Below, piece by piece: positions 1,926 to 49,510 of a DNA stretch of 64,000 nucleotides. The position numbers were made by a program, and so were the translations under genes. The notes beneath the pieces are model-generated. The model was not told the DNA's origin, did no database searches, and saw nothing but the letters and a program-made list of their open reading frames with translations. The stretch is from Candidatus Nanopelagicales bacterium (GTDB lineage Bacteria > Actinomycetota > Actinomycetes > S36-B12 > GCA-2699445): positions 18,465-82,464 of the forward strand of contig JAXLSJ010000008.1 in NCBI GenBank assembly GCA_046330625.1, written 5' to 3'. Every line of letters begins with the position of its first letter. Position 1 is the first letter of the stretch.

Positions 1926-1984
1926 GGGTGAGTAGCCGCGAAGCTGCGTATCGAAGCCCCCGGTGGTCGAGCGAAGCCGAGACC
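1926..1984 (+). repeat. Degenerate B unit directly followed by an A unit of the intergenic repeat family
   Basis: The sequence is ggggtgagtagccgcgaagctgcgtatcgaagccccc followed by ggtggtcgagcgaagccgagacc. It begins 9 nt after the stop of the GS-like gene. Confidence 0.8.
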
Positions 1985-2011
1985 ACGGGGACCAGCGCCC
2001 CGTTCGACAGG

Positions 2012-2776
2012 TCAGCGCTGTCGGGCGCGGCGGGCGCCCACCTCGCGCACCAGGGGGCGTGGCAGGTACTGCGCCATCAGGCTGAGGGCGCCGTATCGGC
2101 GGCTGGCCACACTGATGAGCCGCCCCTTGTCGGAGTCGCGCAACGCCTGGGACACGACGTCGTCCACGTCGAGCCAGAGCACGCCCGGGATCCCGGCCAT
2201 GTCCATAGACGCCCGCTCGTGGAACTCGGTGTGGGTGAAACCCGGACACACGGCGGTCGCCGCCACGCCGGTCCCGGACAACTCCCCGCTCAGCCCTTCG
2301 GTGAACACCGTGACCCAGGACTTGGCCGCGCTGTAGGTGCTGCCCGTGATCCATCCGGCGACGCTGCTGACGTTGATCAGTCGCCCCGACCCCCGCGCCA
2401 CCATGCCGGGCAGGGCCGCGTGCGACAGCCTCATGACGGCAGTCACCATCACGTCGATCATCGCCTGCTCGTCGGCCACGTCGGAGTGGAGGAACGAGTC
2501 CTCGATGCCGAAGCCCGCGTTGTTGACGAGGATCTCGACCGGGGATTCCGGGTCGGCCAGGATCCGGGCCACGCGGTCGACGTCGGCGCGGTTCGCCAGG
2601 TCGGCCGGCACGGCCACGGCGTCGACCCGGAAGTCGGCGCGCAGTTCGGCGGCCAATTCGTCGAGTCGTTCGGCGGTGCGGGCCACCAGGATCAGGTCGT
2701 GGCCCCGCTCGGCGAGGGCGCGGGCGAATCCGCGGCCCAGCCCCGCGGTGGCTCCGGTGACAAGTGCTCGGGTCAT
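2012..2776 (-). CDS. SDR family oxidoreductase
   Basis: Track ORF 2012..2908. The real start is ATG 2776 (MTRALVTGATAGLGRGFARALAERGH, a TGxxxGxG motif), with NNAGFG and YSAAK motifs. The 44 upstream codons are translated A repeats. Confidence 0.9.
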   Translation of the reverse strand: MTRALVTGATAGLGRGFARALAERGHDLILVARTAERLDELAAELRADFRVDAVAVPADLANRADVDRVARILADPESPVEILVNNAGFGIEDSFLHSDVADEQAMIDVMVTAVMRLSHAALPGMVARGSGRLINVSSVAGWITGSTYSAAKSWVTVFTEGLSGELSGTGVAATAVCPGFTHTEFHERASMDMAGIPGVLWLDVDDVVSQALRDSDKGRLISVASRRYGALSLMAQYLPRPLVREVGARRARQR

Positions 2777-2815
2777 GGGGCCATCCTCCCCCGAATCTTC
2801 TGGAGGCCGAGCGTC

Positions 2816-2870
2816 GGTGGTCGAGCGAAGTCGAGACCGCGCCCCCCGGTGGTCGAGCGGAGCCGAGACC
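2816..2870 (+). repeat. Two tandem A units (2816-2838, 2848-2870)
   Basis: The units are ggtggtcgagcgaagtcgagacc and ggtggtcgagcggagccgagacc(acc). They lie between the SDR start and the MFS stop. Confidence 0.85.
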
Positions 2871-2873
2871 ACC

Positions 2874-4179
2874 TCACCGAACTCGAGAGTCGGCGCCCCG
2901 TGCCTCACGGGCGCGGGCCGACGACTGAGTCACCGGTGGCGCCTCGGCGGCGGGTCCCTCTCGTGTCCGTGGACCGACGACGCGCAGTTGCCGGATCTGT
3001 CTGAAGCCGACGGCACCGACGGACAGTCCCAGAATGGCCAGCCCGCCCGCCGTGAGGGTCGCGGGTATCCCGATGTGCGCTGACACCGGTCCGGCTGCGA
3101 TCGCCCCCAGCGGGCTCAGCGCGTACGAACCGACGGCGTCGTAGGCGGCTACCCGGGAGAGCCTGTCGGTGGGGATGCGTTCCTGCAGGGTGGTGCTCCA
3201 CGAGATCGTGAAGACCTCCACCCCGATCCCGGAGAGCCCGGCTGCGATCACGATTGTCAGCGTCGGCAGGGGTCCGGCCAGGGCGAGGATCGGCAATGCG
3301 AGGCAAGCAGTGCCGAGGGCGCCGACCAGCAGTGGTCGATTCGGTCGCACGCGCATGATCAGGATTGCGCCGGCGGCCGCGCCGAGTGCCTGGCCGGCGA
3401 GCACGGCGCCCCACGAGCCTGGTCCATTCAGCGACTCGTCGGCGACCACCGGACCAAGGACGGTGAAGCACCCCAGGAAGAGCGTGTTCACCAGGCTGAA
3501 CTGGGCCACGATGAGCCACAACCACCGGTGACCGGTGAACTCGCGCCAACCGTGCCGCAGCTCGGTCAGGTATCCGGGAGTGGCGTGCGGCGCCAACGCA
3601 GGAAGTCTGATCCAACGGCGGAAGATCGCGACCACGAGGTAGCTGAGCGCATCGACCGCCAGGGTCCAACCCGGACCGATGGCGGCGACGAGCAGACCCC
3701 CTGCTGCCGCACCGCCGATCAGCGCGGTGTTGGCGGCGAGGCGACTCCACGAGATTCGCCGACGACAGGTCAGCCGGTGGCACTGTTTGCGGCACGATGC
3801 CGTGCGCAGCGGGCAAGTAGCAGCCGAAGGCGGCAGCACGCAGGGCAGACAGGGCGGCGATCACCCACAACGGGCAGGTCCCTGCGAGGACAACGACGGC
3901 CAGCGCGCCCTGCGCAACTGCCTGCGTCAGCTCGGCACCGACGATGACCCGCAGCCGGGGCAGCCGGTCGGCCAACACGCCGCCGAACAGCAGCGCCGCG
4001 ACGGTGGCAGTCAGCGCGGTGGCGGCGACCACGCCGACATCGCTGGCGGAACCGCCCAGGTCCAGTACCGCGAACGGGACGGCCGTGGCCGCGACGGCGG
4101 ACCCGAGTGTGGACGTGAATTCCCCGGCCAGGAGCAGCCGGAAGTTGCGATGTGACAGGGCCCCCGTTGTCGGTCGCAT
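2874..4179 (-). pseudogene. MFS transporter, reading frame broken near 3745-3765 as assembled
   Basis: The N-terminal half (MRPTTGALSHRNFRLLLAGEF...PPADLSSAN) is in the frame of ORF 2905..4335. The rest (...LAANTALIGGAAAGGLLVAAIGPGW... to stop 2874) is in ORF 2874..3839. The shift is +1, i.e. one extra base (plausibly gcctc for gctc). The start ATG 4179-4177 overlaps the upstream stop as TGATG. Confidence 0.8.
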
Positions 4180-4705
4180 CAGGCGCCCTCGTCGTCGTCC
4201 ACCTCGAACAACACCGCGCTGGCGCTGACGTGCAGGGCGCCGGTGGTGCGCAGCGGTAGGGCTCGTTCGTGCAAGGTGGCCATCGCGTCGGCAATCTGGC
4301 GCGCCGCCTTCTCCCACACCTCCCGCTCGACCCACAGATCAGCGTCGGAGAACACCGCCCAGTCGCCTACCGTCGCCCCGCCCAGCCGGCGAGCAACCTC
4401 GGTGGCCACCGCCTGCACCGCCAGGTGTGGGTCGTCGTCGCTGCCGGCAGGGCCGGTTCCGCCGTAAGCCGGTATCGGCGCTCTCGCCCGCCGCGGACGT
4501 TGCGAACCTCCGCGAGTTCGAGGAACCCCGCCGCCGCCAGCTGACGGACGTGGAAGCTGACCGCAGCCTGACTCATGGACATCTCCCGCGCCAGCTCCGC
4601 GCTCGACATCGCCGTTCCCGTCACGAGCGACAGGATCCGCAATCGCACCGGATGTGAGAGGGCGCGCAACCTGGTCCACTCGTCCGGGTCTACCTCCAAA
4701 GACAT
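4179..4705 (-). pseudogene. ArsR-family winged-HTH regulator with C-terminal extension, frame broken near 4446-4450 as assembled
   Basis: The N-terminus is in ORF 4367..4705 (MSLEVDPDEWTRLRALSHPVRLRILSLV...VSFHVRQLAAAGFLE...RERRYRLTAEPALP). The C-terminus is in ORF 4179..4721 (GSDDDPHLAVQAVATEVARRLGG...FEVDDDEGA). Adding one C to ctgcc|ggc restores a single frame. Confidence 0.8.
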
Positions 4706-4765
4706 ATTTGGAGGGTCTCACAACCCACGTGGCCCGGTCAACGGGTCGAGGGTGGCGGCTGGCCC

Positions 4766-5192
4766 GGTGGTCCAGCGGAGCCGAGACCGCGTCCCCCGGT
4801 GTCGAGCGGAGCCGAGACTGCGCCCCCCGGTGGTCGAGCGGAGCCGAGACCTCCGGTCCCCGGGTGGGCGCGCACGTTCCTGCCGTTCTGACGACCGTGC
4901 GAACCGTCCGCTCTCGACCCGCGCACAGTTGTGTCGCAATGGCTTCGAAATGGGCATCGAATACGACATGTCTTTGCGCGGGTCCCGACCCGGCGGCCCC
5001 GGAGGAGTCTCATAACGACAGGTTCGTGCGCGTGTGCTGCGGTCTCGGCGTCGCTCGACCACCGGGGGCTTCGCTCGACCACCGGTGCATAGCTCGACCG
5101 CGGTGGTCTCGGCTTCGCTCGACCACCGGGAGGGGTGGCCGGGGGTGGTGGTCTCGGCTTCGCTCGACCACCGGGGGTGTCGCTCGACCACC
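4766..5192. repeat. Repeat island 1: three forward A units, an AT-richer core, then three full and three partial reverse A units
   Basis: Forward units are at 4766-4788, 4798-4819 and 4829-4851. Full reverse units are at 5041-5063, 5105-5127 and 5150-5172. Partial reverse units are at 5069-5083, 5088-5099 and 5178-5192. The core holds a nested hairpin at 4933-4967 (gtcgcaatggcTTCGAaatgggcaTCGAAtacgac). The island fills the divergent ArsR / acyl-CoA dehydrogenase intergenic region. Confidence 0.85.
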
Positions 5193-5257
5193 GGATAGCG
5201 GGCACAGTCGGCGCGGCACGTACGCTTTCGCAGAAGCTCCCGAACCGAGAGGCTCTC

Positions 5258-7039
5258 ATGTCCCTGCTGTTCAACCCCCGGACCTACGACCCGTCGAGTT
5301 TCGACGACGAGACTTCGCGGCAGCTGTTGGCGCTGGTCGACTTCTTCGAGAGCAAGGGACTCGCGCGCAACAAGGAGGAGTACTACTCCGGCGAGTGGTA
5401 CACCGACTTCCTCGCTCTCGTCGCCGAGAACAAGATCTTCTCGACGTTCGCCACCCCCGCCGAGGTCGGTGCGCTCGTCGGCGACGACGACGCGCGCTGG
5501 GACCTGGCGCGGATCAACGACCTGAACGAGATCCTCGGCTTCTACTCACTGTCCCACTGGTACGCGTGGCAGGTGTCGGTGCTGGGTCTGGGCCCGGTCT
5601 GGCTGTCCGACAACGATGACGCTCGACGCACCGTCGCCCAGTTGCTGGCCGACGGCTACATCTTCGGTTTCGGCCTGTCCGAGCGGGAGCACGGCGCCGA
5701 CATCTACTCCACCGACATGATCCTGACCCGCAGCGGCGACGGGTACACCGCCAGCGGGGGCAAGTGGTACATCGGCAACGGCAACGTGGCGGGCCGGCTG
5801 AGTGTGTTCGGCAAGTTCGCCGACGACGATCCGGAACGACCCGGCGAGTACGCGTTCTTCCTGGTCGACACCCAGCATGAGAACTACGAACTGATCAAGA
5901 ACGTCGTGGCCGGCCAGATGTTCGTCGCCGCCTTCAACCTGCATGAGTACCCGGTGGCCGAGGCCGACATCCTGCACGTCGGCAAGCCGGCGTGGGACGC
6001 GGCGCTGGCCACCGTCAACGTCGGCAAGGTGAACCTCGGCTGGGCCAGCATCGGCATCAGCGAGCACGCGTTCTTCGAGGCGATCACTCACGCGAACAAC
6101 CGCATCCTCTACGGCAATCGGGTGACCGACTTCCCCCACGTGAGGCGCATGCTGGCCGACGCCTACGCCCGACTGATCGCCATGAAGGTGTACGCGGCCC
6201 GGTCGGCCGACTACTTCCGCAGCGCGAGCGAGGACGACCGCCGGTTCCTGCTGTTCAACCCCATCACCAAGGCCAAGGTGACCAGCGAGGGTGAGCGGGT
6301 CATCGACCTGCTGTGGGACGTCATCGCGGCCCGCGGGTTCGAGCAGGACACCTACTTCAGCCGCGCGGCCACGGATATCCGGGCGCTGCCCAAACTCGAG
6401 GGCACGGTGGCGGTCAACATCGCCCTGGTGCTCAAGTTCCTCCCCATGTACCTGGGTGCGGCCCACGGCGCCGCCGCCGAGTACCCCGAGGTGGGTGTCC
6501 GACAGGACGCGGCCGACGACGCGTACCTGTTCCATCAGGGACCGGCCAAGGGGCTGAGCAAGATCGGATTTGCCGACTGGCGTCCCGCCCTCGACCGGTT
6601 CGGCCACCTTCCCAACGTGGCGGTCTTCCGCGAGCAGATCGACGCGTTCACCCGGTTGGTCATGACCGCCCCTCCCAGCGAGGAGCAGAGCAAGGACCTC
6701 GACTATCTGCAGGTGCTGGGGCAACTGTTCACCCAGATCGTGTACGCCCAGTTGATCTGCGAGTCCGCGGCGCTAGCGCTCGACGCGGGCGAGACCCGCA
6801 CCGGCTCGGTCAGCGACCTGTCCGACCTCACCGAGGCGCACGTCGACCGCATGTTCGCGGTGTTCGTGCAGGACATGGCCGAGCAGGCCGTCGCCCTGCA
6901 CGGCCAGGCATCGGCGAACGACACCCAGCGCGACCTGGGGCTGGCCATCGTTAAGCGGCCGGTCATCGACCCTGCCGCCGAACAGCAGTTCGTCACCGAG
7001 GTCCTGTCCTACGACGGCGTCTACGAGATGAAGCCGTGA
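5258..7039 (+). CDS. Acyl-CoA dehydrogenase family protein (long form, ~593 aa)
   Basis: Track ORF 5135..7039. ATG 5258 (MSLLFNPRTYDP) is preceded by gagagg. Motifs are GFGLSEREHGADIYSTDM and GGKWYIGNGNVAG. Upstream codons are translated repeats. Confidence 0.85.
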   Translation: MSLLFNPRTYDPSSFDDETSRQLLALVDFFESKGLARNKEEYYSGEWYTDFLALVAENKIFSTFATPAEVGALVGDDDARWDLARINDLNEILGFYSLSHWYAWQVSVLGLGPVWLSDNDDARRTVAQLLADGYIFGFGLSEREHGADIYSTDMILTRSGDGYTASGGKWYIGNGNVAGRLSVFGKFADDDPERPGEYAFFLVDTQHENYELIKNVVAGQMFVAAFNLHEYPVAEADILHVGKPAWDAALATVNVGKVNLGWASIGISEHAFFEAITHANNRILYGNRVTDFPHVRRMLADAYARLIAMKVYAARSADYFRSASEDDRRFLLFNPITKAKVTSEGERVIDLLWDVIAARGFEQDTYFSRAATDIRALPKLEGTVAVNIALVLKFLPMYLGAAHGAAAEYPEVGVRQDAADDAYLFHQGPAKGLSKIGFADWRPALDRFGHLPNVAVFREQIDAFTRLVMTAPPSEEQSKDLDYLQVLGQLFTQIVYAQLICESAALALDAGETRTGSVSDLSDLTEAHVDRMFAVFVQDMAEQAVALHGQASANDTQRDLGLAIVKRPVIDPAAEQQFVTEVLSYDGVYEMKP

Positions 7040-7572
7040 CCGCGCGCGACGACCTGCTCGCGGCCATCCGCGACAAGGCGGTCGTGATGGGCCGGGTGAT
7101 CCTGTCCAGCGGACAGGAGGCCGACTACTACGTCGACCTGCGCCGGGTGACCCTCGACGGCCACGCCGCGCCCCTGGTGGGCCAGGTCATGCTCGACCTG
7201 ACCGCGGATCTCGACTACGACGCGGTGGGCGGCCTGACGCTCGGTGCCGACCCCGTGGCCACGGCCATGCTGCACGCGGCGGCCGCGCGTGGCCGGCAGC
7301 TCGACGCCTTCGTCGTGCGCAAGGAGTCCAAACACCACGGATTGCAGCGCCGGGTCGAGGGACCCGACGTCGCGGGGCGTCGCGTGCTCGCGGTCGAGGA
7401 CACCTCGACGACGGGTGGTTCCGTGCTCACTGCGGTCGAGGCGCTGCGCGAGGCGGGCGCCGAGGTGGTCGGGGTGGCGGTCATCGTCGAGCGGGGTGCA
7501 GCACCTCGGGTCGAAGAGGCCGATCTGGAGTATCGGGCCGCCTACCACCTGGCGGACCTGGGACTGGACTGA
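7036..7572 (+). CDS. pyrE: Orotate phosphoribosyltransferase
   Basis: Track ORF. PRPP-binding motif VLAVEDTSTTGGSVL and typical PyrE length. The GTG start overlaps the upstream stop (GTGA). Confidence 0.93.
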   Translation: MTARDDLLAAIRDKAVVMGRVILSSGQEADYYVDLRRVTLDGHAAPLVGQVMLDLTADLDYDAVGGLTLGADPVATAMLHAAAARGRQLDAFVVRKESKHHGLQRRVEGPDVAGRRVLAVEDTSTTGGSVLTAVEALREAGAEVVGVAVIVERGAAPRVEEADLEYRAAYHLADLGLD

Positions 7573-23816: not shown

Positions 23817-23887
23817 GCGACGGCTGATCGCCCGAGCAACCAGAATCCTCTCCCCACTCGGGTGGCAGCCGGGTTGCCGAGCGGGAG

Positions 23888-24768
23888 ATGCCGTCGTTGT
23901 GGTGCAGTGGGGAGAGGATTGTGGTTGTTCTTCCCAGACGAACCGGTCTGATCGTGCGCTTGGCCCAGGGCCTCTATGCCCTGGAGGTCCCGCGGACAAC
24001 TGGCGATCTGCTGCGTTCCGCCCTGGTCTCGGCAGGTCCACACGTGGTGGCATCACACGGCACGGCCGCGTGGTTGTGGGCGCTGCTGCCTGAACCGCGG
24101 CCTGGAGAGGCCCAGCCCTGCATGTGAGCGTTCCGCACGGTTGCTGGTGTCCCGCCATCCCTGGAGTGAGTGTCCATCAGGCGACGTGGACCGAGCCCCG
24201 TATGAGGGGGGACTGGCCGGTCACCGGGCCGCGACGCACGTTGGTGGATCTATGTGGCAGCTCGACGCTGCGACAGTTTCGGTTCGTGGCGCTCGACGCA
24301 CTCCATCGCGGGCTCCTCACCGTCGGTGAGTTCCTGGACACCCAGGGGGTTCCGCAGCGACTCCTTCGCCGGTGGCGGACCGTCGGTGAGGAAGCAGAAG
24401 CGGGCGCTGCGTCGGGTGGGGAGGCCGAGTACTGGCGGATCCTGCAGAGTTCGAGCCTCCCCATGCCCGAGTTGAACGTGGCCGTGCTGCAAGGCCGCTT
24501 CGTCGTCGATGCCCTGTGGGAGTCGCCCCGGCTGGTTGCCGAGATCGACGGCCGCGAGCATCACACCAAGGAGTGGCAGTGGGAAGCCGACTTGCACCGG
24601 CAGAACGAACTGCACGCAGCCGGGTTCGTACTCATCCGGTTCCCGGTGTCGCGGGTGCTCGGTGACCCGGGAGGGGTGGCCGCCGAGACCGCGGCCCTGC
24701 TCCGTCGGAGGGAGACGGAACTGGGGGTGCCCCGCACCGATCGGCCCTACCGCCACCGGATGGGATGA
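23888..24768 (+). pseudogene. DUF559 / endonuclease-domain protein, frame broken near 24095-24120 as assembled
   Basis: The N-terminal part is in ORF 23888..24127 (...VASHGTAAWLWALLPEP). The rest is in ORF 24124..24768, whose frame is open from 24094 (...ALHVSVPHG...VAEIDGREHH...IRFPVSRV). The -1 shift is consistent with a 1-nt deletion. Confidence 0.7.
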
Positions 24769-30939: not shown

Positions 30940-31146
30940 ATGACGACGATCGAGCAGTGGTGGCCGCAGGTGGATGCGGCGACGCGCCAGTGGTTGACCG
31001 ACAACAACGGCGACGATCTTCCGGTTGCCGTAGCCCAGCAGATCACGCAGGCGGGTGGGTCCGCGACGCCGGGGGTGCCGATCCCCGACGACGAGGCCGA
31101 CTGGATCGAGACGGTGGCGAACGACGAGACACCGCGGGTTGAGTAG
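30940..31146 (+). CDS. Small acidic Trp-rich hypothetical protein (68 aa)
   Basis: Track ORF. An SD-like aaagg lies 8 nt upstream and GC3 is high. The last codons and stop (PRVE-TAG) are contributed by a B repeat unit. No family recognised. Confidence 0.5.
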   Translation: MTTIEQWWPQVDAATRQWLTDNNGDDLPVAVAQQITQAGGSATPGVPIPDDEADWIETVANDETPRVE

Positions 31147-31673
31147 GCGCGCCAGCGCCGTATCGAAACCGGCCACCGGAGTCGGGTCTCGCTTCGCCCG
31201 AGCCGGGGTCCGGGCTCGGGTCGGGCGCCCCTTGGAGTCAAGGAACCGCCTTCGGCGGTCGGTGTTGGATGGATGCTCCGCCTCGCAGGCTCGGCTGCGC
31301 ATCTGGTTCCGCCTTGACGGGCGCCGACTCCGACCCGGACCCCGTCCCGGGCTCGGTCGGTGGGTACGTGCGGCTTCACGGTGGTCGAGCGGAGTCGAGA
31401 CCACGGCACCACCCGCGTAACCCGCAGGCGTTGCTACGGCCTCATGATCATGGTGAATCGCGATGGGTTGAGCCTGGGAGGTGAGAGCAGCAGCTTGATC
31501 ATGAGGCGATTTCAACGGCCCTGCCCGACGTCAAGGGGTCTCGGCTTCACTCGACCAGCGGGGTCTTGGCTTGGCTCGACCTCCGGGGGCTTCGATACGG
31601 CGCTGGCGCGCCTACTCAACCCGCGGGGGTCTCGGCTCCGCTCGACCACCGGGGGTCGTGCCGCTCGACCGCC
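31132..31673. repeat. Repeat island 2: B forward, nested inverted repeats, A forward, an AT-richer hairpin, then A reverse x2, B reverse, A reverse and a partial A
   Basis: B forward is at 31132-31170 and A forward at 31380-31402. A perfect 11-bp inverted repeat cctcatgatca/tgatcatgagg lies at 31440-31450 and 31496-31506. A reverse units are at 31537-31559 and 31562-31584, B reverse at 31589-31626, A reverse at 31628-31650, and a partial A at 31658-31673. The island sits between convergent genes. Confidence 0.85.
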
Positions 31674-31679
31674 GGTTGC

Positions 31680-33620
31680 TCACCCCGCCGGCAGGCGGGC
31701 GTGCGCCTCGGCGACGGGATCGAGCAGGTCCAGGGCGCGTGGTGTCGAGTCCGGCGGCGGAGACCAGCAGGGTGTCGGGGTCCGGGGTTGCTCCAGACGG
31801 TCCGCCAGACACATCAGGCCGTCATGGGCGGCCGCGGCCAGACCGGCCGGTGGTTCCTCGGTCCCCGACAGTTCGTGCCACCGGATGAGCTGTTCGCTGA
31901 CCAGGCGTAGGTCGGCCATGATGATCAACGCGGTGTGGGGGTCGAGTTCGTGGCGGATCGGCTCCTGGGCCGCGGAATGGGCGGCGGCCTCCGCCCGGGT
32001 GCGGACCCGCAGGACGGCGATCCGGCGTTCGGTCATAGCGTCGGGGGCGCCGGCGAACACCGCGTCGCTGTACGCGGCGCCCGTGCGGGCCAGGTCGGCC
32101 AGATCCCGATGGACCGAGGCGCCGGCAGCCCGGGGGAACACCAGCGACGCCGTCACCACGATCACGCCGGCGATCACCGTGTCGACGAGGCGGGGCACCA
32201 GGGTGGTGCGGACCGGGTCGCCGGTGAGCGCCAGCAGGACGATCACGAACGAGGTGATGCCGGCCACGGCCACCGTGTAGTTCGCATACAGGAACGCCCC
32301 GACCAGCAGAGCGCCGAACCCCACCGCCAGGGCGAAGCTCACCGGCCCGGTCACCACGAGCACCAGGCCGATGGCCAGGACCAGCCCCACGACAGTGCCG
32401 CCGATGCGCATGACGACGCGGGTGACCGTACCCGCCAGGTCGGGCTTGGCGATCCACGCGACGGTGAGGGGGACCCAGTACCCGTGGGCCATCGGCAGGA
32501 GCAGCGAGATCACTGTGGCCACCGCGATGGCCAGGGACAGCCGGAGGGCGTGGCGGACGAACGGATCGGACCAGGTGAGGTGCTCCCGGAGCACCCGGCC
32601 GGGATGGACCGCCAACGGTGGTGGTGGCCCGAATTCGGCGCGCCGTCCCACGGGCCAGGGATCCGTCACGGCGCGGGCTGCCCGCTCGAGTGGTCCGGTG
32701 ACGGCAGTGACCAGAACCGGTGGGGTCCCCTCGGCGACGGTGACGTCGGCCGCCGTCCGCACCTGCGCCAGCGCTCCGGGAATCGCCCGGCGTCGTGGGG
32801 GGAACCGCAGTGCCCCCCCGATGTGCCGCATGGTGTGGGCCACCGAGTGCTCCAACCTGCGGGCGGTGACCCGATGCTCGGTGCTCAGGGCGATGAGCGC
32901 CAGTCGCAACTGGGCGCAGTCGTCCGCAAGACCGACAGCCCATGACCGGGAGGGGCCGCGGACCTCGCCGTCGGTGGCCCGGGCCTGCGCGATCATCGGC
33001 ATCAGCGCGACAGCGGTCGTGGACACCGTGTGGTCCGCCCCCTGTGCTGCGTACCCCACGCCGCGGTAGGCGGTGGACAGCACCGTGCGCAGGCCTTCGG
33101 CACGTCGCAGGAGCCAGCCGGGAACCGCGACCACCAGGTAGGCCACTCCGCCGAGCAGGAGCCAGCCCGAGGCGATGACACCGCCGTCCAACGCCCCCGG
33201 GCTCCCCGAGTACATGGTGACCAGGACAAGCGCGATGGTGCCGCCCAGTGCCGTGCGGGGGCCGATCACCCCCACGTAGCCGCAGACGGCAGCGGCGATG
33301 CTACTCCCCAGCACGTGCAGCACCGGGAAGTCGGCGATCAGGCCGCCGAGACAGGTGGCGACCAGATATCCGGCCAGTGTGATGAGGAGTCCGACGAACC
33401 GGTTTCGATCCGGATCGGTGGAGTCGGCGAATCCCACGAAAGCGGCCCCCAGGGCAAGGGACACGACGGCCGTCGCAGACGCCCAGCCCACGCTCGCGAG
33501 GATCACCGCGCTGACGACGAGGCCGGTCCGCAGGCCGCGGAGCCACAGGATCCGGGCGCGGTCGACGGCCAGCGAGGTGCGCAGGGCCGAGCGGGCCACG
33601 GCCCCGGTCTGCGTGCTCAC
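31680..33620 (-). CDS. FUSC family (fusaric-acid-resistance / YccS-like) integral membrane protein
   Basis: This is the 3' 646 codons of track ORF 31680..35987, starting at GTG 33620 ([13 protein letters not shown]). It has two hydrophobic multi-TM blocks separated and followed by cytoplasmic regions. The upstream part of the ORF is antisense to purL. Confidence 0.75.
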
Positions 33621-33725: not shown

Positions 33726-36017
33726 ATGACCCTGGACACGGTCGAGCTCGCTGAGTCGACTCCCGACACCGAGCAGCCCTTCGCCGAGTTGGGGCTCAAG
33801 CCGGACGAGTACCAGCGCATCCGCGAGATCCTGGGCCGCCGACCCACCAGCAGCGAGCTGGCCATGTACTCGGTCATGTGGAGCGAACACTGCTCCTACA
33901 AGTCCAGCAAGGTGCATCTGCGCCAGTTCGGTGACAAGGCGCCGCCCTCGGACGCGCTGCTGGTCGGAATCGGCGAGAACGCCGGGGTGGTCGACATCGG
34001 CGACGGCTGGGCGGTCACGTTCAAGGTCGAGAGCCACAACCACCCCAGTTACGTCGAGCCGTATCAGGGCGCGGCGACCGGGGTCGGCGGCATCGTGCGC
34101 GACATCATCTCGATGGGCGCGCGGCCGCTGGCGGTCATGGACCCGCTGCGGTTCGGCGCCGCCGATCATCCGGACACGAGGCGGGTGTTGCCCGGAGTGG
34201 TCGCGGGGATCGGTGGTTACGGCAACTGTCTGGGCCTGCCGAACATCGGCGGCGAAGTGGTGTTTGACGCCTCGTACCAGGGCAACCCGCTGGTCAATGC
34301 GCTGTGTGTCGGGGCCATGAGACACGAGGACATCCACCTGGCCAGTGCCCGTGGCGTGGGCAACCGCGTCGTGCTCTACGGCGCCCGGACCGGCGGCGAC
34401 GGTATCGGCGGGGTGTCGGTCCTGGCCAGCGAGACCTTCGAGGACTCGGGACCGGCCAAGCGGCCCAGTGTCCAGGTCGGCGACCCGTTCATGGAGAAGT
34501 TGCTCATCGAGTGCACCCTCGAAGTCCTGGGCGCGGGACTCGTCGAAGGTATCCAGGACCTCGGCGGCGCCGGTATCTCGTGCGCGACCAGCGAGCTGGC
34601 GAGCAACGGCGACGGCGGGATGCACGTCCACCTCGACCGGGTGCCGCTGCGCGATGCGACGCTCAGCCCCGAAGAGATCCTCATGAGCGAGTCGCAGGAA
34701 CGCATGTGCGCCATCGTGACGCCGGAGCACCTCGAGGAGTTCCTCGCCATCTGCGCCAAGTGGGACGTCGAGGCCGTCGACATCGGCGAGGTCACCGACA
34801 CCGGTTCCCTCACGATCGACTGGCACGGTGAGCGGGTCGTCGACGTCCCGCCGCGCACCGTGGCCCACGAGGGTCCGGTGTACGAAAGGCCGTTGGCCCG
34901 ACCCGACTACCTGGACGCCCTGCAGGAATCCGGTCCGGACGATCTGGCGCGACCGACCACCACCGCTGGGCTCCGGGACACCTGGCTGCGACTGGCGGGC
35001 TCGGCGAACCTGGGCAGCAAGGCGTGGATCACCGACCAGTACGACCGCTATGTGCGGGGCAACACCGTCCTGGCCCAACCCGAGGACGCGGGCATGATCC
35101 GCATCGACGAGGAGACCGGTCGCGGGGTGGCGCTGTCCACCGACTGCAACGGCCGCTTCGCGAAACTGGACCCGTACGCGGGCGCCCAGCTCGCGTTCGC
35201 CGAGGCCTACCGCAACGTGGCCACCACTGGCGCAGTGCCGCTGGCGGTCACCAACTGCCTCAACTTCGGATCGCCCGAGGAACCCGGTGTCATGTGGCAG
35301 TTCGCCGAGGCGGTACGGGGCCTGGCCGACGCGTGCCAGGTCGCCGGGACCCCCGTGACCGGGGGGAACGTGTCGTTCTACAACTCGACCGGCGATGTGG
35401 CGATCCACCCGACGCCGGTGGTCGGGGTGCTCGGCGTGATCGACGACGTCGACCGGCGCACGCCGCAGGCGTGGGCGGATGACGGCGAGGCCATCTACCT
35501 GCTCGGCGACAGTCGCGACGAACTCGCCGGCTCGGAGTGGGCGCATGTCGTCCACGGCCACTTGGGGGGCCGGCCCCCGGTCGTCGATCTGGAGCGGGAG
35601 CGGGTCCTGGCGCAGGTCCTGGTGGCCGGCAGTCGCGACGGCATGATCAGCGCCGCCCACGACGTGTCCGACGGCGGGGTGGCCACGACTCTCGGCGAGA
35701 TGTTCCTGCGCAGTGGCATAGGGGCCCGCACCTGGGTTCCCGACGGTGTCACACCCTTCGTCCACCTGTTCGGCGAGTCCGCCGGGCGAGCGGTGGTCGT
35801 CGTCCCCCGCAGCGAGGAGCAGCGGTTCACCGCCATGTGCGCCGCGCGGGAATTGCCGGCGGCCCGGATCGGGGTGGTCGACTCCGGCTTGGGCGCCGAC
35901 AGCGACGAGACCGATCAGGTGCTGGTGGTCGCGATCCCGGACGACGACGACCTGGTGATCCGGCTGACCGACCTGCGCGCCGCCCACTCGGCCCTGCTCC
36001 CGAAGCTGTTCGGCTGA
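33726..36017 (+). CDS. purL: Phosphoribosylformylglycinamidine synthase subunit PurL
   Basis: Track ORF 33030..36017, starting at ATG 33726 ([24 protein letters not shown]). Motif [12 protein letters not shown]. About 763 aa, typical of small PurL. Confidence 0.95.
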
Positions 36018-36445
36018 TGCGGCTCACGGGTCGGATCGACTTCGCCATCCGCGCCGCCGTCGAGATCGCGGGCCGCGGCGGCACCGTGCGACTCGACGAC
36101 GTGGCCAAGGCCCAGAACCTGCCGACCGAATACGTGCGGTCCGCCATGCGCGATCTGCGGCGCTCCGGCATCGTCTCCAGCAAGCGGGGCCACGACGGTG
36201 GCTACGCGCTGAGTCGTCCCGCCGACGAGGTGTCGTTGGCCGACATCATCCGCGCGGTCGACGGTCCCCTGACCGAGGTGCGCGGCGAGCGCCCGGACAA
36301 CGTCGAATACACCGGCGTCGCCGCCCCGCTGCGGGATGTCTGGCTGGCGCTGCGGGCCAACGAACGCAAGATCCTCGAGGCCGTCTCCCTGGCCGACGTG
36401 GTGGCCGACGACCTCCCGCCGGTCGTGACCAGCCTGCTGGACTGA
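36017..36445 (+). CDS. Rrf2 family transcriptional regulator (no cysteines)
   Basis: Tail of track ORF 35537..36445. ATG 36017 overlaps the purL stop (TGATG). Sequence [19 protein letters not shown]...GIVSSKRGHDGGYALSRP...SLADIIRAVDGPL. It contains no Cys residues. Confidence 0.85.
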   Translation: MRLTGRIDFAIRAAVEIAGRGGTVRLDDVAKAQNLPTEYVRSAMRDLRRSGIVSSKRGHDGGYALSRPADEVSLADIIRAVDGPLTEVRGERPDNVEYTGVAAPLRDVWLALRANERKILEAVSLADVVADDLPPVVTSLLD

Positions 36446-39858: not shown

Positions 39859-39891
39859 CCAGTTTTCCTACACAGTTAGTCGGGAAACTGG
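39859..39891 (+). promoter_or_regulatory. AT-rich inverted repeat CCAGTTTTCC-N13-GGGAAACTGG immediately upstream of the FAD/NAD(P)-binding protein / Rrf2 operon
   Basis: The arms at 39859-39868 and 39882-39891 match 9 of 10 positions. The right arm overlaps the SD gggagg of the ATG at 39900. GC is locally low in a high-GC genome. Confidence 0.4.
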
Positions 39892-39899
39892 GAGGCGAC

Positions 39900-41291
39900 A
39901 TGGGTGCTGCAGTGGTGGCAGTGATCGGAGCCGGTGCGTCGGGCGCCCTGACGGCGGCGGCGATCCTCCGTCGGGCCGGGGCCGACGTGGCGGTACGGCT
40001 GATCGACGCGGCGGACAGCACCGGGCGGGGGGTGGCGTACGGCACGGTGGACCGACGCCATCTCACCAACGTCCCGGTCGCCCGCATGAGCGCCGACCCC
40101 GACGCCCCCGACGACTTCCTGCACTGGCTGCGGCGCCACCGGGCGCCCCAGGTCCGGGTGACCGACTACGTACCCCGGCAATGGTTCGGCGAGTATCTGG
40201 AGGGCCATCTGGCCCGGACGGCCGAGAGGTCCCAGGCCCGGCTGTACCGGATCAATGACGAAGCGCACAGCATCGTGCCCCGGGGTGGGCGGTACCGCGT
40301 GCGTCTCCGCCACGGGCTGAGCATGATGACCGACGCCGTGGTGCTCGCCGTAGGTGCCCCGCGCGCGGACGCCGGCCTGCTGCCGTCGGCCCTCACCGCG
40401 TCGCCGCTGTTCTGCGCGGACCCCTGGAATCCGGTACTGCTCCACCGCGCCACGGATCATGCTGACCGGATCCTCTTCGTGGGTGCGGGCCTGACGATGG
40501 TGGACCTGGCCATCAGCCTGGACCGGCCCGGACGCAAGCTCATGGCGGTGTCACGCACCGGGCTGTTGCCGGCCGCCCATGCCCGACGGCCACCCAGTGG
40601 GATCCTGCCGCCGCCAGTGGTGCCCGACGGGGTCCTGAGCCGCCAGGCCGCGGAACGCCTGATCGTCGAGCAGGTGCGACGCGCGCAGGCCGAATACGGA
40701 GACTGGCGTCCCGGGATCGATTCCCTGCGCCCGGTCGCCGACGAACTGTGGCAGCGGCTGTCCGTGATCGACCAGCGCCGGTTCGCTCGCGGTGAGGGCC
40801 TGCGTGAGTGGGAGGTCCGGCGCCATCGCATGGCTCCCGAGACGGCCGAAAGGCTGCAGGAGATGCGCGACGCCGGACGGTTCACGGTGCGTCGGGCCAC
40901 GATCGCCAGTGCCCGCCGCCACCGCAACGGTGGCCTGCGGGTGCTCCTCTCCGATTCCACCCGGCTCCACGCCCACGCGGTCGTCGACTGCACCGGTGCG
41001 GGGATCCCCGACGCGGTGCGCCAGGGCGGCAACCCGTTGCTGGCCGACCTCGTGGGGCGTGGTCTGGCACGGATCAACGACCAGGGACTCGGGCTGGACA
41101 ACGACCGTGGCGGGGCGTTGGTGTCGGCCGACGGGCGGGTGCAGTCCGCGCTGCGGGTGGTGGGGCACTATCGGCGAGGCCCCGTCTGGGAGACCACGGC
41201 GATCCCGCAGATCAGACTGCAGGCCGTTCAGGTCGCCGAGGATCTCCTGGCCGCGCGACAACCGGCACCCGTCCCCGAGCGGACCCGCTGA
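39900..41291 (+). CDS. FAD/NAD(P)-binding protein (NAD_binding_9-like)
   Basis: Track ORF. N-terminal dinucleotide fold VAVIGAGASGALTAAAIL and a second fold ILFVGAGLTMVDLA. Confidence 0.8.
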   Translation: MGAAVVAVIGAGASGALTAAAILRRAGADVAVRLIDAADSTGRGVAYGTVDRRHLTNVPVARMSADPDAPDDFLHWLRRHRAPQVRVTDYVPRQWFGEYLEGHLARTAERSQARLYRINDEAHSIVPRGGRYRVRLRHGLSMMTDAVVLAVGAPRADAGLLPSALTASPLFCADPWNPVLLHRATDHADRILFVGAGLTMVDLAISLDRPGRKLMAVSRTGLLPAAHARRPPSGILPPPVVPDGVLSRQAAERLIVEQVRRAQAEYGDWRPGIDSLRPVADELWQRLSVIDQRRFARGEGLREWEVRRHRMAPETAERLQEMRDAGRFTVRRATIASARRHRNGGLRVLLSDSTRLHAHAVVDCTGAGIPDAVRQGGNPLLADLVGRGLARINDQGLGLDNDRGGALVSADGRVQSALRVVGHYRRGPVWETTAIPQIRLQAVQVAEDLLAARQPAPVPERTR

Positions 41292-41746
41292 TGCGGCTCA
41301 CGGGTCGAGTGGACTTCGCCATCCGCGTGACCCTCGAGATTGCCGCCCACGAGGGTCGCACCGTGAGTCTGCGCGAGGCGGCCGAGGCCCAGGACCTGCC
41401 CACGGACTACGTGCGTGCCCTGATGCGGGATCTGCGGCGGGTCGGGATCGTCCGCAGCCGACGAGGGTACGAGGGCGGATACACCCTGGGACCCCGACCG
41501 GATCAGGTGTCGCTCGCGGACATCCTCCGCGCGATCGGGGAGCCCCTGGGTGGGGACGACGGCGCCGCCGGCCACCAGTACCCCGGCGTGGCCGCCCCGC
41601 TTGCCGACGTGTGGGCCGAGCTGGACGGACTGCAGGGTCGGCTGCTGGAGTCGGTCACCCTGGCGGACGTCCTGGCGGCGCGGGCCACCGACCGCGGGTT
41701 GAGTAGGCGCGCCAGCGCCCTATCGAAACCCCCGCGGGTTGAGTAG
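41291..41746 (+). CDS. Rrf2 family transcriptional regulator (no cysteines), C-terminus encoded by B repeats
   Basis: Tail of track ORF 40808..41746. ATG 41291 overlaps the upstream stop (TGATG). Sequence MRLTGRVDFAIRVTLEIAAHEG...GIVRSRRGYEGGYTLGP...SLADILRAIGEPL. The last ~20 aa (DRGLSRRASALSKPPRVE) are translated B units. Confidence 0.85.
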   Translation: MRLTGRVDFAIRVTLEIAAHEGRTVSLREAAEAQDLPTDYVRALMRDLRRVGIVRSRRGYEGGYTLGPRPDQVSLADILRAIGEPLGGDDGAAGHQYPGVAAPLADVWAELDGLQGRLLESVTLADVLAARATDRGLSRRASALSKPPRVE

Positions 41747-42191
41747 GCGCGCCAGCGCCCTATCGAAACTGCGGCTCCTATCGGCCACGCCCGCTGCGCC
41801 CGGGATCGGTTGCGTGGGTACGTGTGGGTTGCCCGGTGGTCGAGCGGAGCCGAGACCCCGGACACGCGCATGGAGATGCGGTAATGGCTCCTGTCGGTGG
41901 CCGGGGCTTCTGAGGCGCGCTTGAGAGTGTCGTAATGGGCGCCGGGGAGTGCCCCATTACGTCACTCTGGAGCGCGGTCCGGACCGGCGGCTCCCAGACC
42001 GCCGCCCTAACGGCATGAACGGGTGCGTCTTCGGTCTCGGCTTGGCTCGACCAGGGGGGGTGTCGATACGGCGCTGTCGGGCCTACTCAACCCGCGGTGG
42101 GTGAGGGTTTCGATACGGCGCTGGCGCGCCTACTCAACCCGCGGTGGGTGGGGGTTTCGATACGGCGCTGCCGCGCCTACTCAACCCACGG
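41692..42191. repeat. Repeat island 3: B forward x2, A forward, an AT-richer hairpin core, A reverse, B reverse x3
   Basis: B forward units are at 41692-41730 and 41732-41769, and A forward at 41835-41857. The core hairpin is at 41924-41968 (agagtgtcgtaatgggc ... gccccattacgtcactct). A 12-nt palindrome cggtccggaccg lies around 41977-41988. A reverse is at 42033-42055. B reverse units are at 42061-42097, 42106-42144 and 42153-42191. Confidence 0.85.
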
Positions 42192-42199
42192 GGCTCGGA

Positions 42200-43105
42200 T
42201 CAGGCGGGGGTCGACACGACGTCGGGGGAGACGGCGACCGGAGCCACGACCCGTTCCCGACGGTGCGCCCGGATCCCGATCACCGCACCAGCCGCGACCA
42301 GGGCGGCGACACCGAACGCCGCAGCCAGGCCCGGGACCCCCAGGAGCTTGGCGAAGATCGCCCAGTTCGAGATCAGCACCATCGTGCCGACGAAGACACC
42401 GAGGATCATGCGCGGCGCCCGGTGCGCCAGACGTGCGGCGATCGGGGCGGTGATCGCGCCGCCGGCGATCAGGCCGATGACGGCCAGCCAGGGGATGCCC
42501 GACTCGCCGGCCCCGACGAGGAACCCCATCGACGCGGAGACCGCCACGATGAACTCGGCGGTGTTCACGGTGCCGACCACCCGGTGCGGCTCGTGCTTGG
42601 TCAGGGTCATGAGCGAGGGGGTGGCCACCGGGCCCCAACCGCCGCCGCCGGTCGCGTCGACGAACCCGCCGATGAGGCCCACCGGCCACAGGTGCCGGGT
42701 GCGGGCGTTGATCGCGGGGATCAGGTTCTTCCCGAACCCGAAGCGCAGGATGATGATCACGCCCATCAGCGCCAGGATCAGTGCCATCCACACCCGGGCC
42801 CCGTCCATCGCGATGTTGGTCAGGACGACTGCTCCGAGGAACGCGCCCACCGCGCCTGGGACGGCGATCACCAGAAGCACCCGCTTGTCGACGTTGCCCG
42901 CATGCCAGTGCGAGATGCCCGACACGAACGTCGTGCCCACCTTGGCTGCGTGGGTGCCGGCGGAGGCCGCAACGGCCGAGTAGCCCAGCAGCGTGAGCAG
43001 GGTGGCCGAGGTGATCCCGAAGCCCATCCCCAGAAGTCCGTCGACGAACTGCGCCGCAGCGCCGACGAGGCCGAATGCGGCAATGGTCACGAGGTCCACG
43101 AACAC
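42200..43105 (-). CDS. Sulfite exporter TauE/SafE family protein
   Basis: Track ORF. It is a polytopic membrane protein with QFVDGLLGMGFGITSATLL and GGFVDATGGGGWGPV. Confidence 0.88.
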   Translation of the reverse strand: MFVDLVTIAAFGLVGAAAQFVDGLLGMGFGITSATLLTLLGYSAVAASAGTHAAKVGTTFVSGISHWHAGNVDKRVLLVIAVPGAVGAFLGAVVLTNIAMDGARVWMALILALMGVIIILRFGFGKNLIPAINARTRHLWPVGLIGGFVDATGGGGWGPVATPSLMTLTKHEPHRVVGTVNTAEFIVAVSASMGFLVGAGESGIPWLAVIGLIAGGAITAPIAARLAHRAPRMILGVFVGTMVLISNWAIFAKLLGVPGLAAAFGVAALVAAGAVIGIRAHRRERVVAPVAVSPDVVSTPA

Positions 43106-43215
43106 TCCTTCGTCCCGGCGGCGGTGACGCCGTCCCTATCAAAGCACTAATACAACATTGTTCATGCTATTTGGGCGGGTGACGCCCCGCAACCCATCGG
43201 GAGGACAATGTCGGC

Positions 43216-45163: not shown

Positions 45164-45179
45164 CCTGCGGCTCAGGTCA
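45161..45179. terminator. Short hairpin TGACCTG-cggct-CAGGTCA whose arms contain the stop codons of both convergent genes
   Basis: Perfect 7-bp stem with a 5-nt loop. TGA 45161-45163 is the agmatinase stop, and tca 45177-45179 is the complement of the lipoprotein stop. There is no U-tract, so function is uncertain. Confidence 0.25.
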
Positions 45180-45707: not shown

Positions 45708-45786
45708 AGGGTAAGCGCACCGATGTGCTCCCGGTCACCGAGTTTCGCTGTTCCGTGCGTTCCGTGACCACCCCTACACTGATCGG

Positions 45787-48446: not shown

Positions 48447-48526
48447 TCGACGGTTCCGCGGTCGGGTCCGGCCGGGGTCCCTCGTGAGCACGCCGGCCCG
48501 ATCGTTCCGGCTCGACGACCCGGTCG

Positions 48527-48736
48527 TCAGCGGGTGTCGTCGTCCTCGTCGTAGTCGTCCTGATACTTCGCGTACGGATCGTAGGGGTCGTCGTCGACCT
48601 CGGCTTCCGGGGTCTCGGGGATGTCCTCGTCGCCCTTCAGTTCGGCCTCAAGCGCCGACAGGTCGGTGTCCGGCCCGCTGTACTTGAGTCGACGGGCAAC
48701 CTTCGTCTGCTTAGCCTTGGCACGGCCGCGCCCCAT
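48527..48736 (-). CDS. DUF3073 family small conserved actinobacterial protein
   Basis: Tail of track ORF 48527..49483, from ATG 48736. Sequence MGRGRAKAKQTKVARRLKYSGPDTDL... with an acidic C-terminus. Confidence 0.85.
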   Translation of the reverse strand: MGRGRAKAKQTKVARRLKYSGPDTDLSALEAELKGDEDIPETPEAEVDDDPYDPYAKYQDDYDEDDDTR

Positions 48737-49072
48737 GCTCGACCCCCTCGCCCGGTGGTCGGGGGTCGTTCGCACGACCCACCTCATGCTGATGAATCCT
48801 CCACACCTTACCCCGGATGCACCGTCACTTTCGCGACTGCGCGACGCTCGCGGTCCCTGCGTCGGCGTCCGCGGGGCGCCTCCGTCCCGGCCCGATGCAC
48901 CCCGGCCAACGCCACGCCGACGGAGGTCCCACGAGGAATCCCGGAAATGGTGTAGCCGATTTGTGACAATCGGTTGCCGCCCGGTGTGACGTGTGCAACA
49001 TTCATCGCACACGGCAGGCGGGTCCGTCGGACTCGGGGAGAGCCGGACCGGCGGCATGAGTGAGGAGCCATC

Positions 49073-49459
49073 ATGGCTGGACGACCCATTGACGGAGATG
49101 AGTTGCTCACCCCGTCCGAGGTTGCGGCGCTGTTCCGCGTCGACCCGAAGACCGTCACCCGCTGGGCCAAGGCCGGCAAACTGACCTCGATCCGCACCCT
49201 GGGTGGCCACCGCCGCTACCGGGCCGGTGAGGTGTACTCGCTGCTCGACCGGACCCCCGGCATGCGCACGGACGTCCCCCGCGAGGTCATCGACAGCACA
49301 CCCCGTCCCCCGGCTGGCGCCCCACGCCCGGTCCCGGTCCGTCCCACCGTCGCCCGTCCCGGCGTCCCCCGCCAAGCCGGCCAGCCGGCGCAGCCGCCGG
49401 CCCGTCCGCCGGCACGTACCATCAACCTCGCTGGTTCGCGCGACGCCAGCCGCCGCTGA
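49073..49459 (+). CDS. bldC: BldC-family (MerR-like, excisionase-type HTH) transcriptional regulator
   Basis: Track ORF. Sequence LLTPSEVAALFRVDPKTVTRWAKAGKLTSIRTLGGHRRY followed by a Pro-rich tail. Confidence 0.88.
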   Translation: MAGRPIDGDELLTPSEVAALFRVDPKTVTRWAKAGKLTSIRTLGGHRRYRAGEVYSLLDRTPGMRTDVPREVIDSTPRPPAGAPRPVPVRPTVARPGVPRQAGQPAQPPARPPARTINLAGSRDASRR

Positions 49460-49487
49460 GACCTCGCCGACCCCACCCCACACCGGT

Positions 49488-49510
49488 GGTCTCGGCTTTG
49501 CTCGACCATC
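49488..49510 (-). repeat. Single reverse A unit between convergent bldC and the hydrolase gene
   Basis: Sequence ggtctcggctttgctcgaccatc. Confidence 0.75.

Follow-up and report, generated by a model that had tools for sequence, protein, structure and literature searches.

Site-specific nucleases that cut only single-stranded DNA (ssDNA) were first described in 2025, and each pairing of such a nuclease with its hairpin is a possible tool. The founding example, SsnA of Neisseria meningitidis, is a 94-aa protein with a single GIY-YIG domain that binds and cuts ssDNA only, leaving RNA untouched (Chenal et al., Nat Commun 2025, PMC11893778). Its cut lies upstream of a directional hairpin repeat termed NTS, a subset of dRS3, and NTS copies flank the ssnA gene (PMC11893778). 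Homologues of SsnA (cd10448) number in the thousands and come with their own 'Ssn-related motifs' (SRM), and the authors of that study pointed to the likeness with repetitive extragenic palindromic (REP) sequences and the REP-associated tyrosine transposases (RAYTs) (PMC11893778). The subject here is a population of short hairpin repeats, modules A and B, in the intergenic DNA of a 64,000-nt stretch from a Candidatus Nanopelagicales bacterium (contig JAXLSJ010000008.1; hereafter the window). The best explanation, with a probability of roughly 0.6, is that A and B form one hairpin family of the REP and bacterial interspersed mosaic element (BIME) kind whose cognate enzyme is a small stand-alone GIY-YIG nuclease, much as NTS/SRM repeats belong with SsnA and REPs with RAYTs. 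The element would thus be of a known kind, the hairpin companions of stand-alone GIY-YIG single-strand nucleases, with a new sequence motif, an unusually wide taxonomic spread and a well-defined structure.

Module A is GGTGGTCGAGCGRAGYCGAGACC. Allowing up to 3 mismatches, the window holds 15 matches to A and 7 to B, and neither module was matched in dinucleotide-preserving shuffles (100 for A). Reading of the clusters adds one diverged B, one A with a single-base deletion and five copies of the A left arm by itself, some of them degenerate, which brings the total to ~29 (16 full A, ~5 A half-arms and 8 B). The figure of at least ~25 copies given in a preliminary description of this stretch therefore holds, as do its three fused B-ccccc-A units at 1926-1984, 31562-31626 and 42033-42097. 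On a gene map drawn from codon usage (88% coding, in a window of 70% G+C), all convincing copies fall in six intergenic regions or overlap the ends of genes, in both orientations, in agreement with the earlier account. Proteins encoded in the window have their best matches, at 100% identity, in a MAG named Candidatus Nanopelagicales bacterium (locus tags U0R64_). A scan by structure only found 21 matches within those six regions, together with 13 scattered intragenic matches, a number near the level of shuffled sequence (3-11).

A single hairpin scaffold underlies both A and B, which are versions of it and not separate families. The scaffold reads 5'-CGGTGGTY / GA / G-[inner hairpin]-Y / CGA / RACCACCG-3', that is, an outer stem, an internal loop, a G:Y pair and an inner hairpin. 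In A the inner hairpin is a GCGNAGY mini-hairpin with a GNA three-base loop, whereas in B it is TA-G[free hairpin]C-G-TA, which is longer and free in sequence. The consensus of B over 207 copies, drawn from one genome locus, one relative and 120 metagenome stretches, is CGGTGGTT GAGTAG [hairpin] GTATCGA AACCAC. Compared to A, it has the same outer stem with T:A replacing C:G, and the GAG and CGA segments are identical. The preliminary description had spoken of two linked modules; both are real, but the phrase understates their relation, because they share one scaffold. It had also placed the arms of A around a 12-nt loop, and here the complementary outer arms stand while the supposed plain loop is itself structured.

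The fixed core of A is GAGCG-N-AG-Y-CGA, and the four bases on each side of it are complementary and covary. The outer-stem pairs next to the core are GGTC/GACC in 148 cases and GATC/GATC in 10, with CCCT/AGGG, GCTT/AAGC, GACT/AGTC, CCCC/GGGG, GGTT/AACC and TGTT/AACA among the others, for at least eight variants in all. Because the A loci were selected by a pattern that fixed GGTGGTC..GACC, these variants come from other copies in the same loci. Computed on 50 distinct sequences, covariation scores 0.42; shuffled sequences score 0.23, with 0 of 500 as high as the real set, and slid partners score 0.09-0.16. In the same number of distinct sequences the inner G:Y position is G.U in 37, G-C in 13 and never unpaired. 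The inner stem of B takes 160 different sequences in 197 copies, nearly all of them self-complementary, and compensatory changes are thus found in both the outer and the inner stem. Relatives of A and B with yet other outer stems occur in Bacteroidota (CCCT..AGGG) and in Sphingomonas (GGCT..AGCC).

Folding of the units gives the same A hairpin under two energy models, with a 7-8 bp outer stem, the GA/CGA internal loop, a two-pair stem and a three-base loop. Predicted RNA folds are stable, at -13 to -14 kcal/mol (z ~-2 to -2.5). Three-base loops of the GNA type also form the largest loop class of B (55 of 206 copies), as C-GNA-G. At its centre A has GCGNAG(C/T), in which N varies freely while G and A do not, and this is the GCGNAGC unit described as an extraordinarily stable DNA mini-hairpin (Hirao and co-workers; PMC13037366). 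Unlike A, in which the motif sits within a larger conserved hairpin, the described mini-hairpin is a physico-chemical motif and not a genomic repeat family. Read by eye rather than by computation, the internal loop could form tandem sheared G.A pairs with one bulged C.

The link to a nuclease comes from other genomes. The starting point was a 100-aa open reading frame (ORF) found between inverted copies in two metagenome loci; tblastn, and a profile built from its matches, located a GIY-YIG gene in 10 of ~233 loci that had been chosen solely for carrying the motif (L175, L238, L188, L172, L146, L200, L185, L088, L059 and L053). The encoded proteins are 91-105 aa long and have a single GIY-YIG domain (Pfam PF01541, E 5e-19); that of a Salinibacterium metagenome-assembled genome (MAG) reads MPYVYIIECADRSYYVGSTWDIDRRL... 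A module is present on every flank covered by a contig, and on at least one side it lies within 7-61 nt of the gene or over its stop. Five B-type loci share the same spacing, with B+ at -100 and B- at -23 ahead of the gene, followed, where the 3' flank is covered, by B+ over the stop and B- at +66 to +76. In L238 (2984-3298) and L172 (868-1182) the GIY-YIG frames end ..PVVE* inside a B copy, so that the gene takes its final residues and its stop from the hairpin it is associated with. At the A-type loci, in the Salinibacterium MAG and in Nocardioides gansuensis, A- copies lie +7 to +110 downstream; L059 has an A+ at -61 in addition, and the gene in L088 is bordered by A-type units on the opposite side as well.

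When the 1857 ORFs lying within 150 nt of a module were clustered all-against-all, GIY-YIG was the sole specific family that recurred across hosts (9 loci), the other large clusters being ABC ATPases, short-chain dehydrogenases/reductases (SDRs) and translated repeats from one genome. Furthermore, divergence of the protein tracks the type of hairpin. Members of the hairpin-flanked clade from different phyla are 45-57% identical, or 40-57% when a plasmid-borne homologue from Sphingomonas parapaucimobilis is counted; the gene for the latter stands between copies of GGCTGAGCGAAGTCGAAGCC, a sequence that shares the core. Around a Methylobacterium homologue the hairpins are longer and have CCTGAGG..CTCGAAGG ends, and around a more distant one, on pNL2 of Novosphingobium aromaticivorans, they are CGTC-tagged. 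All three of these homologues were taken from plasmid and chromid records.

Judged from sequence, Ssn/SRM is the closest known system, with the likeness lying in layout and the difference in the sequence itself. As in that system, the repeats are short hairpins (20-50 nt) whose direction is set by non-palindromic conserved flanks, copies are abundant, rarely intragenic and often clustered around genes, and different nuclease clades pair with different hairpin variants. A gene encoding a single-domain GIY-YIG protein of ~94 aa also has repeats to either side of it, here in ten loci outside the window and around the Sphingomonas plasmid homologue. In contrast, the published SRM pattern was built on CGTC-tagged, NTS-like repeats, whereas A and B differ in their outer stem, have a bulged C in a GA/CGA loop and leave the length of the inner hairpin free, and their hosts include Actinomycetota and Bacteroidota, which are absent from the main text of PMC11893778. 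The preliminary description could name no described family for this motif, and that is right for the sequence, which has neither an Rfam family nor a match to the SRM pattern; as a described kind of system, Ssn/SRM does fit the anatomy (PMC11893778). Another comparison is offered by UPF0213 proteins of the YhbQ-YazA type, which have the same size and single domain and give the best matches among solved structures (BH0048 and EF2693; PDB 1zg2 and 1ywl; E 1.7e-16 and 3.2e-12). However, YazA and BH0048 are 34-44% identical to the hairpin-flanked proteins, and in Bacillus subtilis yazA sits between trmNF and rsmI with overlapping gene ends that leave no room for flanking repeats. PADLOC returned no defence-system match for the nuclease, and NCBIfam gave a weak sub-threshold match.

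The motif is not confined to the window and is spread over several phyla. A was collected from a scan of one genome per species (at least 113 genome stretches) and B from at least 120 metagenome stretches, and the hairpin was found between genes in Actinomycetota, Bacteroidota and Alphaproteobacteria. Among the matches listed for A are Nocardioides, Marmoricola, Rhodoglobus, Salinibacterium, Gordonia, Micropruina and Pseudarthrobacter in the Actinomycetota, Bacteroidales, Lentimicrobium, Ferruginibacter and Aureispira in the Bacteroidota, and a Melioribacteraceae MAG. An identical 23-mer is found in loci of 32-50% G+C (Bacteroidota, Melioribacteraceae) and of 63-75% G+C (Actinomycetota), and B-type copies occur in metagenome contigs of 30-75% G+C. 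The window, L103 and six metagenome loci contain both A and B. Tandem arrays exist (8 copies with a period of 24 in L087, 5 copies with a period of 35 in L025), as do runs of left arms, or of left arms and then right arms, and in Bacteroidota A units are nested in the loop of a sister hairpin, CACCCT-GAGCG..AGTCGA-AGGG. Neither A nor B was found in the viral contigs searched, and a phage vector is therefore not indicated. Rfam gave no match at gathering thresholds and, at E values up to 5, three weak unrelated matches elsewhere in the window; a literature search by sequence strings returned nothing relevant to A or B.

Two local arrangements seen in the collected loci may be recorded beside this spread. 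In L056 (2600-3100) and L072 (1700-2010), from Bacteroidales/Bacteroidota MAGs, nested hairpins lie amid runs of TCATTCG/TAATTCG heptamers on both sides, and the L056 segment additionally holds a long C-run. In the Ca. Nanopelagicales MAG HJP_bin4 (L001, L016, L082, L086, L090, L098 and L101), A is part of a longer repeated composite of ~200 nt or more, in which A+ and A- are paired at a distance of 13-14 nt; upstream stands a conserved block (tggtggcgcgcccgtcggcgcgtgaaagaccgggcgagtac), and certain copies carry a further block that starts GGTCTGAGTCGAAAATGGCC.

By analogy with these genomes, the repeats of the window genome would also be tied to a nuclease, and this genome presumably carries, or once carried, such a gene outside the window. 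The top strand of the hairpin would fold when single-stranded, for instance in replication, repair or DNA uptake, and the nuclease would bind the GA/CGA loop together with the outer stem and nick nearby. Single-strand folding and nicking are proposed because of the analogy with SsnA and the preference for DNA-type loops. New, nested and one-sided arm copies could then result from repair or template switching at the nicks, together with slippage between the GAGCG and AGTCGA segments. At the ends of genes, copies would be tolerated since B supplies TGA and TAG in two of the frames. Some copies may now serve in place of local stem-loops, and copies do occupy sites that hold ordinary terminator-like hairpins in relatives. 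A stronger version of this explanation, put forward tentatively and with the odds judged to be against it, holds that the GA/CGA-loop hairpins and their own clade of ~95-aa GIY-YIG proteins constitute a distinct multi-phylum nuclease-repeat system outside the published Ssn/SRM definition, in which the nuclease would recognise the ssDNA hairpin through its tandem G.A / bulged-C loop and multiply the repeats, nested and half-arm copies included.

Several observations weigh against assigning A and B to a GIY-YIG nuclease of the SsnA kind. The published SRM pattern, HGTCWYN(0-2)YYVSBRHN(0-5)WNVSBRGN(0-2)RNCYNB, has 0 matches in the window and none in the A/B consensus on either strand, while the NTS control matches. 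The 64-kb window has no GIY-YIG gene, and the nuclease link is an association in other genomes, where two of the ten genes are broken (a stop in L172 and a frameshift in L059). The hairpin-flanked clade is 28-43% identical to the pNL2 protein, the sole examined homologue with CGTC-type hairpins, and UPF0213 proteins are about as close. Lastly, the inner stem of B has 36 wobble pairs and 25 A.C mismatches, and because wobbles do not outnumber A.C mismatches the sequence leaves unsettled whether the hairpin acts as DNA or RNA, and on one strand or both.

The layout of A and B is also that of REP/BIME and REPIN sequences with their RAYTs, and the REP/BIME likeness seen in the preliminary description is borne out: these are short, extragenic, imperfect palindromes in both orientations, arranged in clusters, mosaics and inverted dimers, with compensatory stem changes and a single-copy enzyme gene flanked by its own repeats in a REPtron-like manner. 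Under a classical REP/REPIN reading, the repeats would be moved by a RAYT, a Y1 HUH transposase guided on ssDNA by the hairpin and a 5' GTAG, and the GIY-YIG gene would be a mere frequent neighbour. In B, GTAG does mark the 5' foot of the inner hairpin, immediately ahead of a GC-rich hairpin that varies, and GAGC-GTAG-TCGA is the reading of some A copies. Inverted '+-' dimers with their GTAG ends outward dominate, which matches the HH dimers of GTAG REPs (PMC3733652). GAGTAG is present in essentially all B copies, under a search pattern that required it. GTAG is not conserved in A, however, which reads G-N-A-G with a free second base (A, G, T or C). The gene that recurs between repeats encodes a GIY-YIG nuclease rather than a Y1 HUH transposase; among the 1857 module-adjacent ORFs, for which no Y1 (PF01797) profile search was made, there is no recurrent family of transposase type, and ORFs between inverted pairs are either housekeeping genes or GIY-YIG. 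A and B keep nearly the same sequence across phyla, whereas REP sequences are usually lineage-specific, and the text of an HUH survey has no mention of Actinobacteria. Neither of two B strings is present in the text or supplements of a GTAG/CGTC REP survey, in which A was not searched for, and the RepRanger paper has no description of the A/B motif. Movement by a RAYT is considered very unlikely.

RNA or DNA hairpins that serve the host, whether they terminate transcription without a U-tract, stabilise mRNA at the 3' end or punctuate operons, could in principle have been spread by recombination and selection with no dedicated enzyme, and this is an unlikely but more serious contender. The stability of the predicted RNA folds and the position of copies at gene ends (~15 convergent loci against ~7 divergent) would suit it, as would the ordinary stem-loops that two relatives have at the 49459-49514 site and an A copy shared without change by three related MAGs at one operon junction, with flanks 89% identical, which is weak evidence of constraint. 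Yet there is no rule of orientation relative to transcription and no T-run after the window copies, the same 23-mer in phyla of 32-75% G+C is hard to attribute to local selection for hairpins, and the two-sided flanking of one small nuclease gene is left unexplained; service to the host may instead be a secondary, exapted role. That the repeats are a structured RNA motif, a protein-bound, k-turn-like tandem G.A element transcribed from many sites, is also very unlikely. Although the GA/CGA internal loop is strictly conserved beside covarying helices and the G:Y position is mostly G.U, no Rfam family appears at the repeats even at E up to 5, the bulge read from the sequence has one base where a k-turn has three, three-base GNA loops and odd four-base loops take the place of GNRA or UNCG, both orientations relative to genes occur, and SsnA, the closest characterised analogue, does not act on RNA (PMC11893778). 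The preliminary description had also drawn a likeness to transposable elements of the miniature inverted-repeat type (MITEs), which would here be deletion derivatives of insertion sequences moved in trans, with B..A..centre..A..B as the mobile unit. Three composites in the window are bounded by inverted modules, and one of them is missing from the nearest relative. The chance that this is the explanation is nonetheless next to nil: the centres of the composites are unique in 1.8 Mb of collected loci, the one clean filled/empty comparison gives no target-site duplication, the number and kind of modules differ from composite to composite, single modules and tandem arrays are common elsewhere, and no transposase recurs beside the repeats.

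Other candidates were considered and set aside. A hammerhead, a k-turn, the sarcin-ricin loop, domain V of group II introns and a CRISPR repeat do not fit the conserved loop by eye in the order or number of conserved bases, and the Rfam models are silent. A CRISPR array is excluded by the irregular spacing and inversion of the window copies, and the tandem arrays of L087 and L025 lack unique spacers. Intrinsic terminators are excluded by the missing T-run after any window copy and by the near-equal numbers of sense and antisense placements.

The results matter beyond the window. They supply a candidate hairpin of sharp definition, whose core is fixed and whose stems can be exchanged freely, together with matching small GIY-YIG proteins, and the set comes from phyla that go unmentioned in the main text of the 2025 paper. 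They also offer a concrete way to test whether GIY-YIG nucleases, like RAYTs, maintain populations of hairpin repeats in genomes. For annotation, the six intergenic regions are repeat mosaics and not genes or known RNAs. Furthermore, the repeats account for the 'junk' peptides that inflate ORF calls and rewrite gene ends (VVERSRDH and PRVE* here, FDFAQGE-type in other phyla). Such recurrent pseudo-peptides had been recognised from the start and are real: the Rrf2 gene at 41309-41746 has an 18-residue tail, DRGLSRRASALSKPPRVE*, that is encoded by two B copies. B supplies stops (TGA, TAG) in two of three frames, and gene ends are rewritten for this reason. As a separate observation, the stop-supplying role that B plays for the GIY-YIG gene is seen in the window too, for the Rrf2 gene and for a small ORF at 30940-31146.

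Among 89 motif instances of high G+C, 26 are in sense and 23 in antisense orientation between co-directional genes, 23 lie between convergent genes and 9 between divergent genes. Sense and antisense are about equal and there is therefore no sense rule, but 3' regions are nonetheless preferred. Most of 24 'coding' placements carry non-canonical loops, and very short spacers are often nearly filled by a copy. Adjacent B pairs are arranged '+ then -' in 44 cases, '- then +' in 6 and directly in 11; for adjacent A pairs the figures are 22, 9 and 52. Of the two inverted arrangements, '+ then -' is thus the preferred one.

Filled and empty sites could be compared with the nearest relatives found (L117-L120), which have 88% protein identity and run collinear to the window between the Abhydrolase_9 gene and TauE. 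In L117 and L118 the TauE and Rrf2 genes abut, whereas the window carries a 453-nt composite between them, with no target-site duplication at the 41692/42191 borders. The Abhydrolase_9/MerR spacer is 15 nt long and without A in L117, against 54 nt with one A in the window. L117 has four B copies of its own elsewhere, each with a different inner stem. At the site of this single A in the window (49459-49514), two more distant relatives have perfect stem-loops (L121, 12289-12323; L123, ~7520-7570) made of two inverted copies of CGAAGCCGA(C/T)CACC, whose arms resemble the right arm of A. This hints either at a capacity of the family's arms to build ordinary hairpins or at an origin of A from hairpins of that sort. 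The loci of relatives around the acyl-CoA dehydrogenase gene (L114-L116) have no copies, are not collinear at the sites of interest and offer no clean empty site. As a side observation, the SDR and acyl-CoA dehydrogenase genes are ~105-112 nt apart in L114 and L115, against ~2.4 kb in the window (2777-5257, with an MFS-like gene), and A clusters (2802-2870 and 4766-5192) border this extra segment on both sides; the repeats may mark the border of a rearrangement or insertion.

The six repeat-bearing intergenic regions on the codon-usage map are 1917-2012, 2776-2874, 4418-5258, 31146-31680, 41746-42200 and 49459-49514. The three large ones are long imperfect palindromes in the order B+..A+..centre..A-..B-, their centres themselves being partly palindromic, with the composites at 4763-5194, 31132-31674 and 41692-42191. 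The centres have no second occurrence in the collected loci and no remnant of a nuclease gene.

In the first region, a fused B-ccccc-A unit lies directly past the stop of a glutamine-synthetase-like gene, with a diverged B (GGGGT GAGTAG..inner hairpin..GTATCGA AGCC; 1926..1960, +) followed by an exact consensus A (1962..1984, +). The second region has a degenerate A left arm (2802..2813, +) and two A copies (2816..2838 and 2848..2870, both +). The left side of the third, which contains the composite 4763-5194, consists of an A with 1 mismatch (4766..4788, +), an A with a one-base deletion in its left arm (GGTGTCGAGCGGAGCCGAGACT; ~4797..4819, +) and another A (4829..4851, +). Its right side, all on the minus strand, consists of an A with 1 mismatch (5041..5063), an A left arm alone (5072..5083), a degenerate left arm (catagctcgaccgcgg; ~5088..5100), two A copies (5105..5127 and 5150..5172) and a further left arm alone (5181..5192).

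The composite 31132-31674 begins with an exact B (31132..31170, +), whose TAG is the stop of the small ORF 30940-31146, and continues with an A at 31380..31402 (+). On the minus strand there follow an A with 2 mismatches (31537..31559), a fused unit of an A with 3 mismatches (31562..31584) and a B with 1 mismatch (31588..31626), another A (31628..31650) and an A left arm alone (31662..31673), 7 nt from the stop of a FUSC-family gene. In the composite 41692-42191, one B (41692..41730, +) is translated within the tail of the Rrf2 gene and a second (41732..41770, +) provides the TAG that is the stop codon of that gene, with an A at 41835..41857 (+). The minus-strand side has a fused unit of an A (42033..42055) and a B (42059..42097), each with 3 mismatches, an exact B (42106..42144) and a B with 2 mismatches (42153..42191), 9 nt from the stop of the TauE gene. 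The last region has the single A copy (49488..49510, -; 2 mismatches), 3 nt past the stop of the Abhydrolase_9 gene.

Some minor features accompany these regions. Region 31146-31680 has two more local inverted repeats, at 31195-31359 and 31429-31517, one with 30-nt arms that are 80% complementary and 105 nt apart and the other a hairpin on CCTCATGATCA..TGATCATGAGG; no further copies were found elsewhere, and there was no Rfam match. A third short motif, GTGGGTACGTG(C/T)GG, occurs just upstream of A+ in two composites (31361-31375 and 41815-41829), with a possible inverted trace, GCACGTACGC, at ~5215-5224. Away from the repeats, a sub-threshold Rfam match to the drz-agam-1 ribozyme at 23835-23917 (23.7 bits against a gathering threshold of 37, E 2.2) is probably due to chance, and tandem repeats with a 6/12/18-nt period (CGACnCCGAC.. 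and its complement) inside long ORFs at 54916-55409 and 59618-59737 are probably low-complexity coding repeats. Two segments 5.27 kb apart, 35972-36352 and 41246-41623, are 72-73% identical and cover paralogous genes for Rrf2-family regulators (36017-36445 and 41309-41746).

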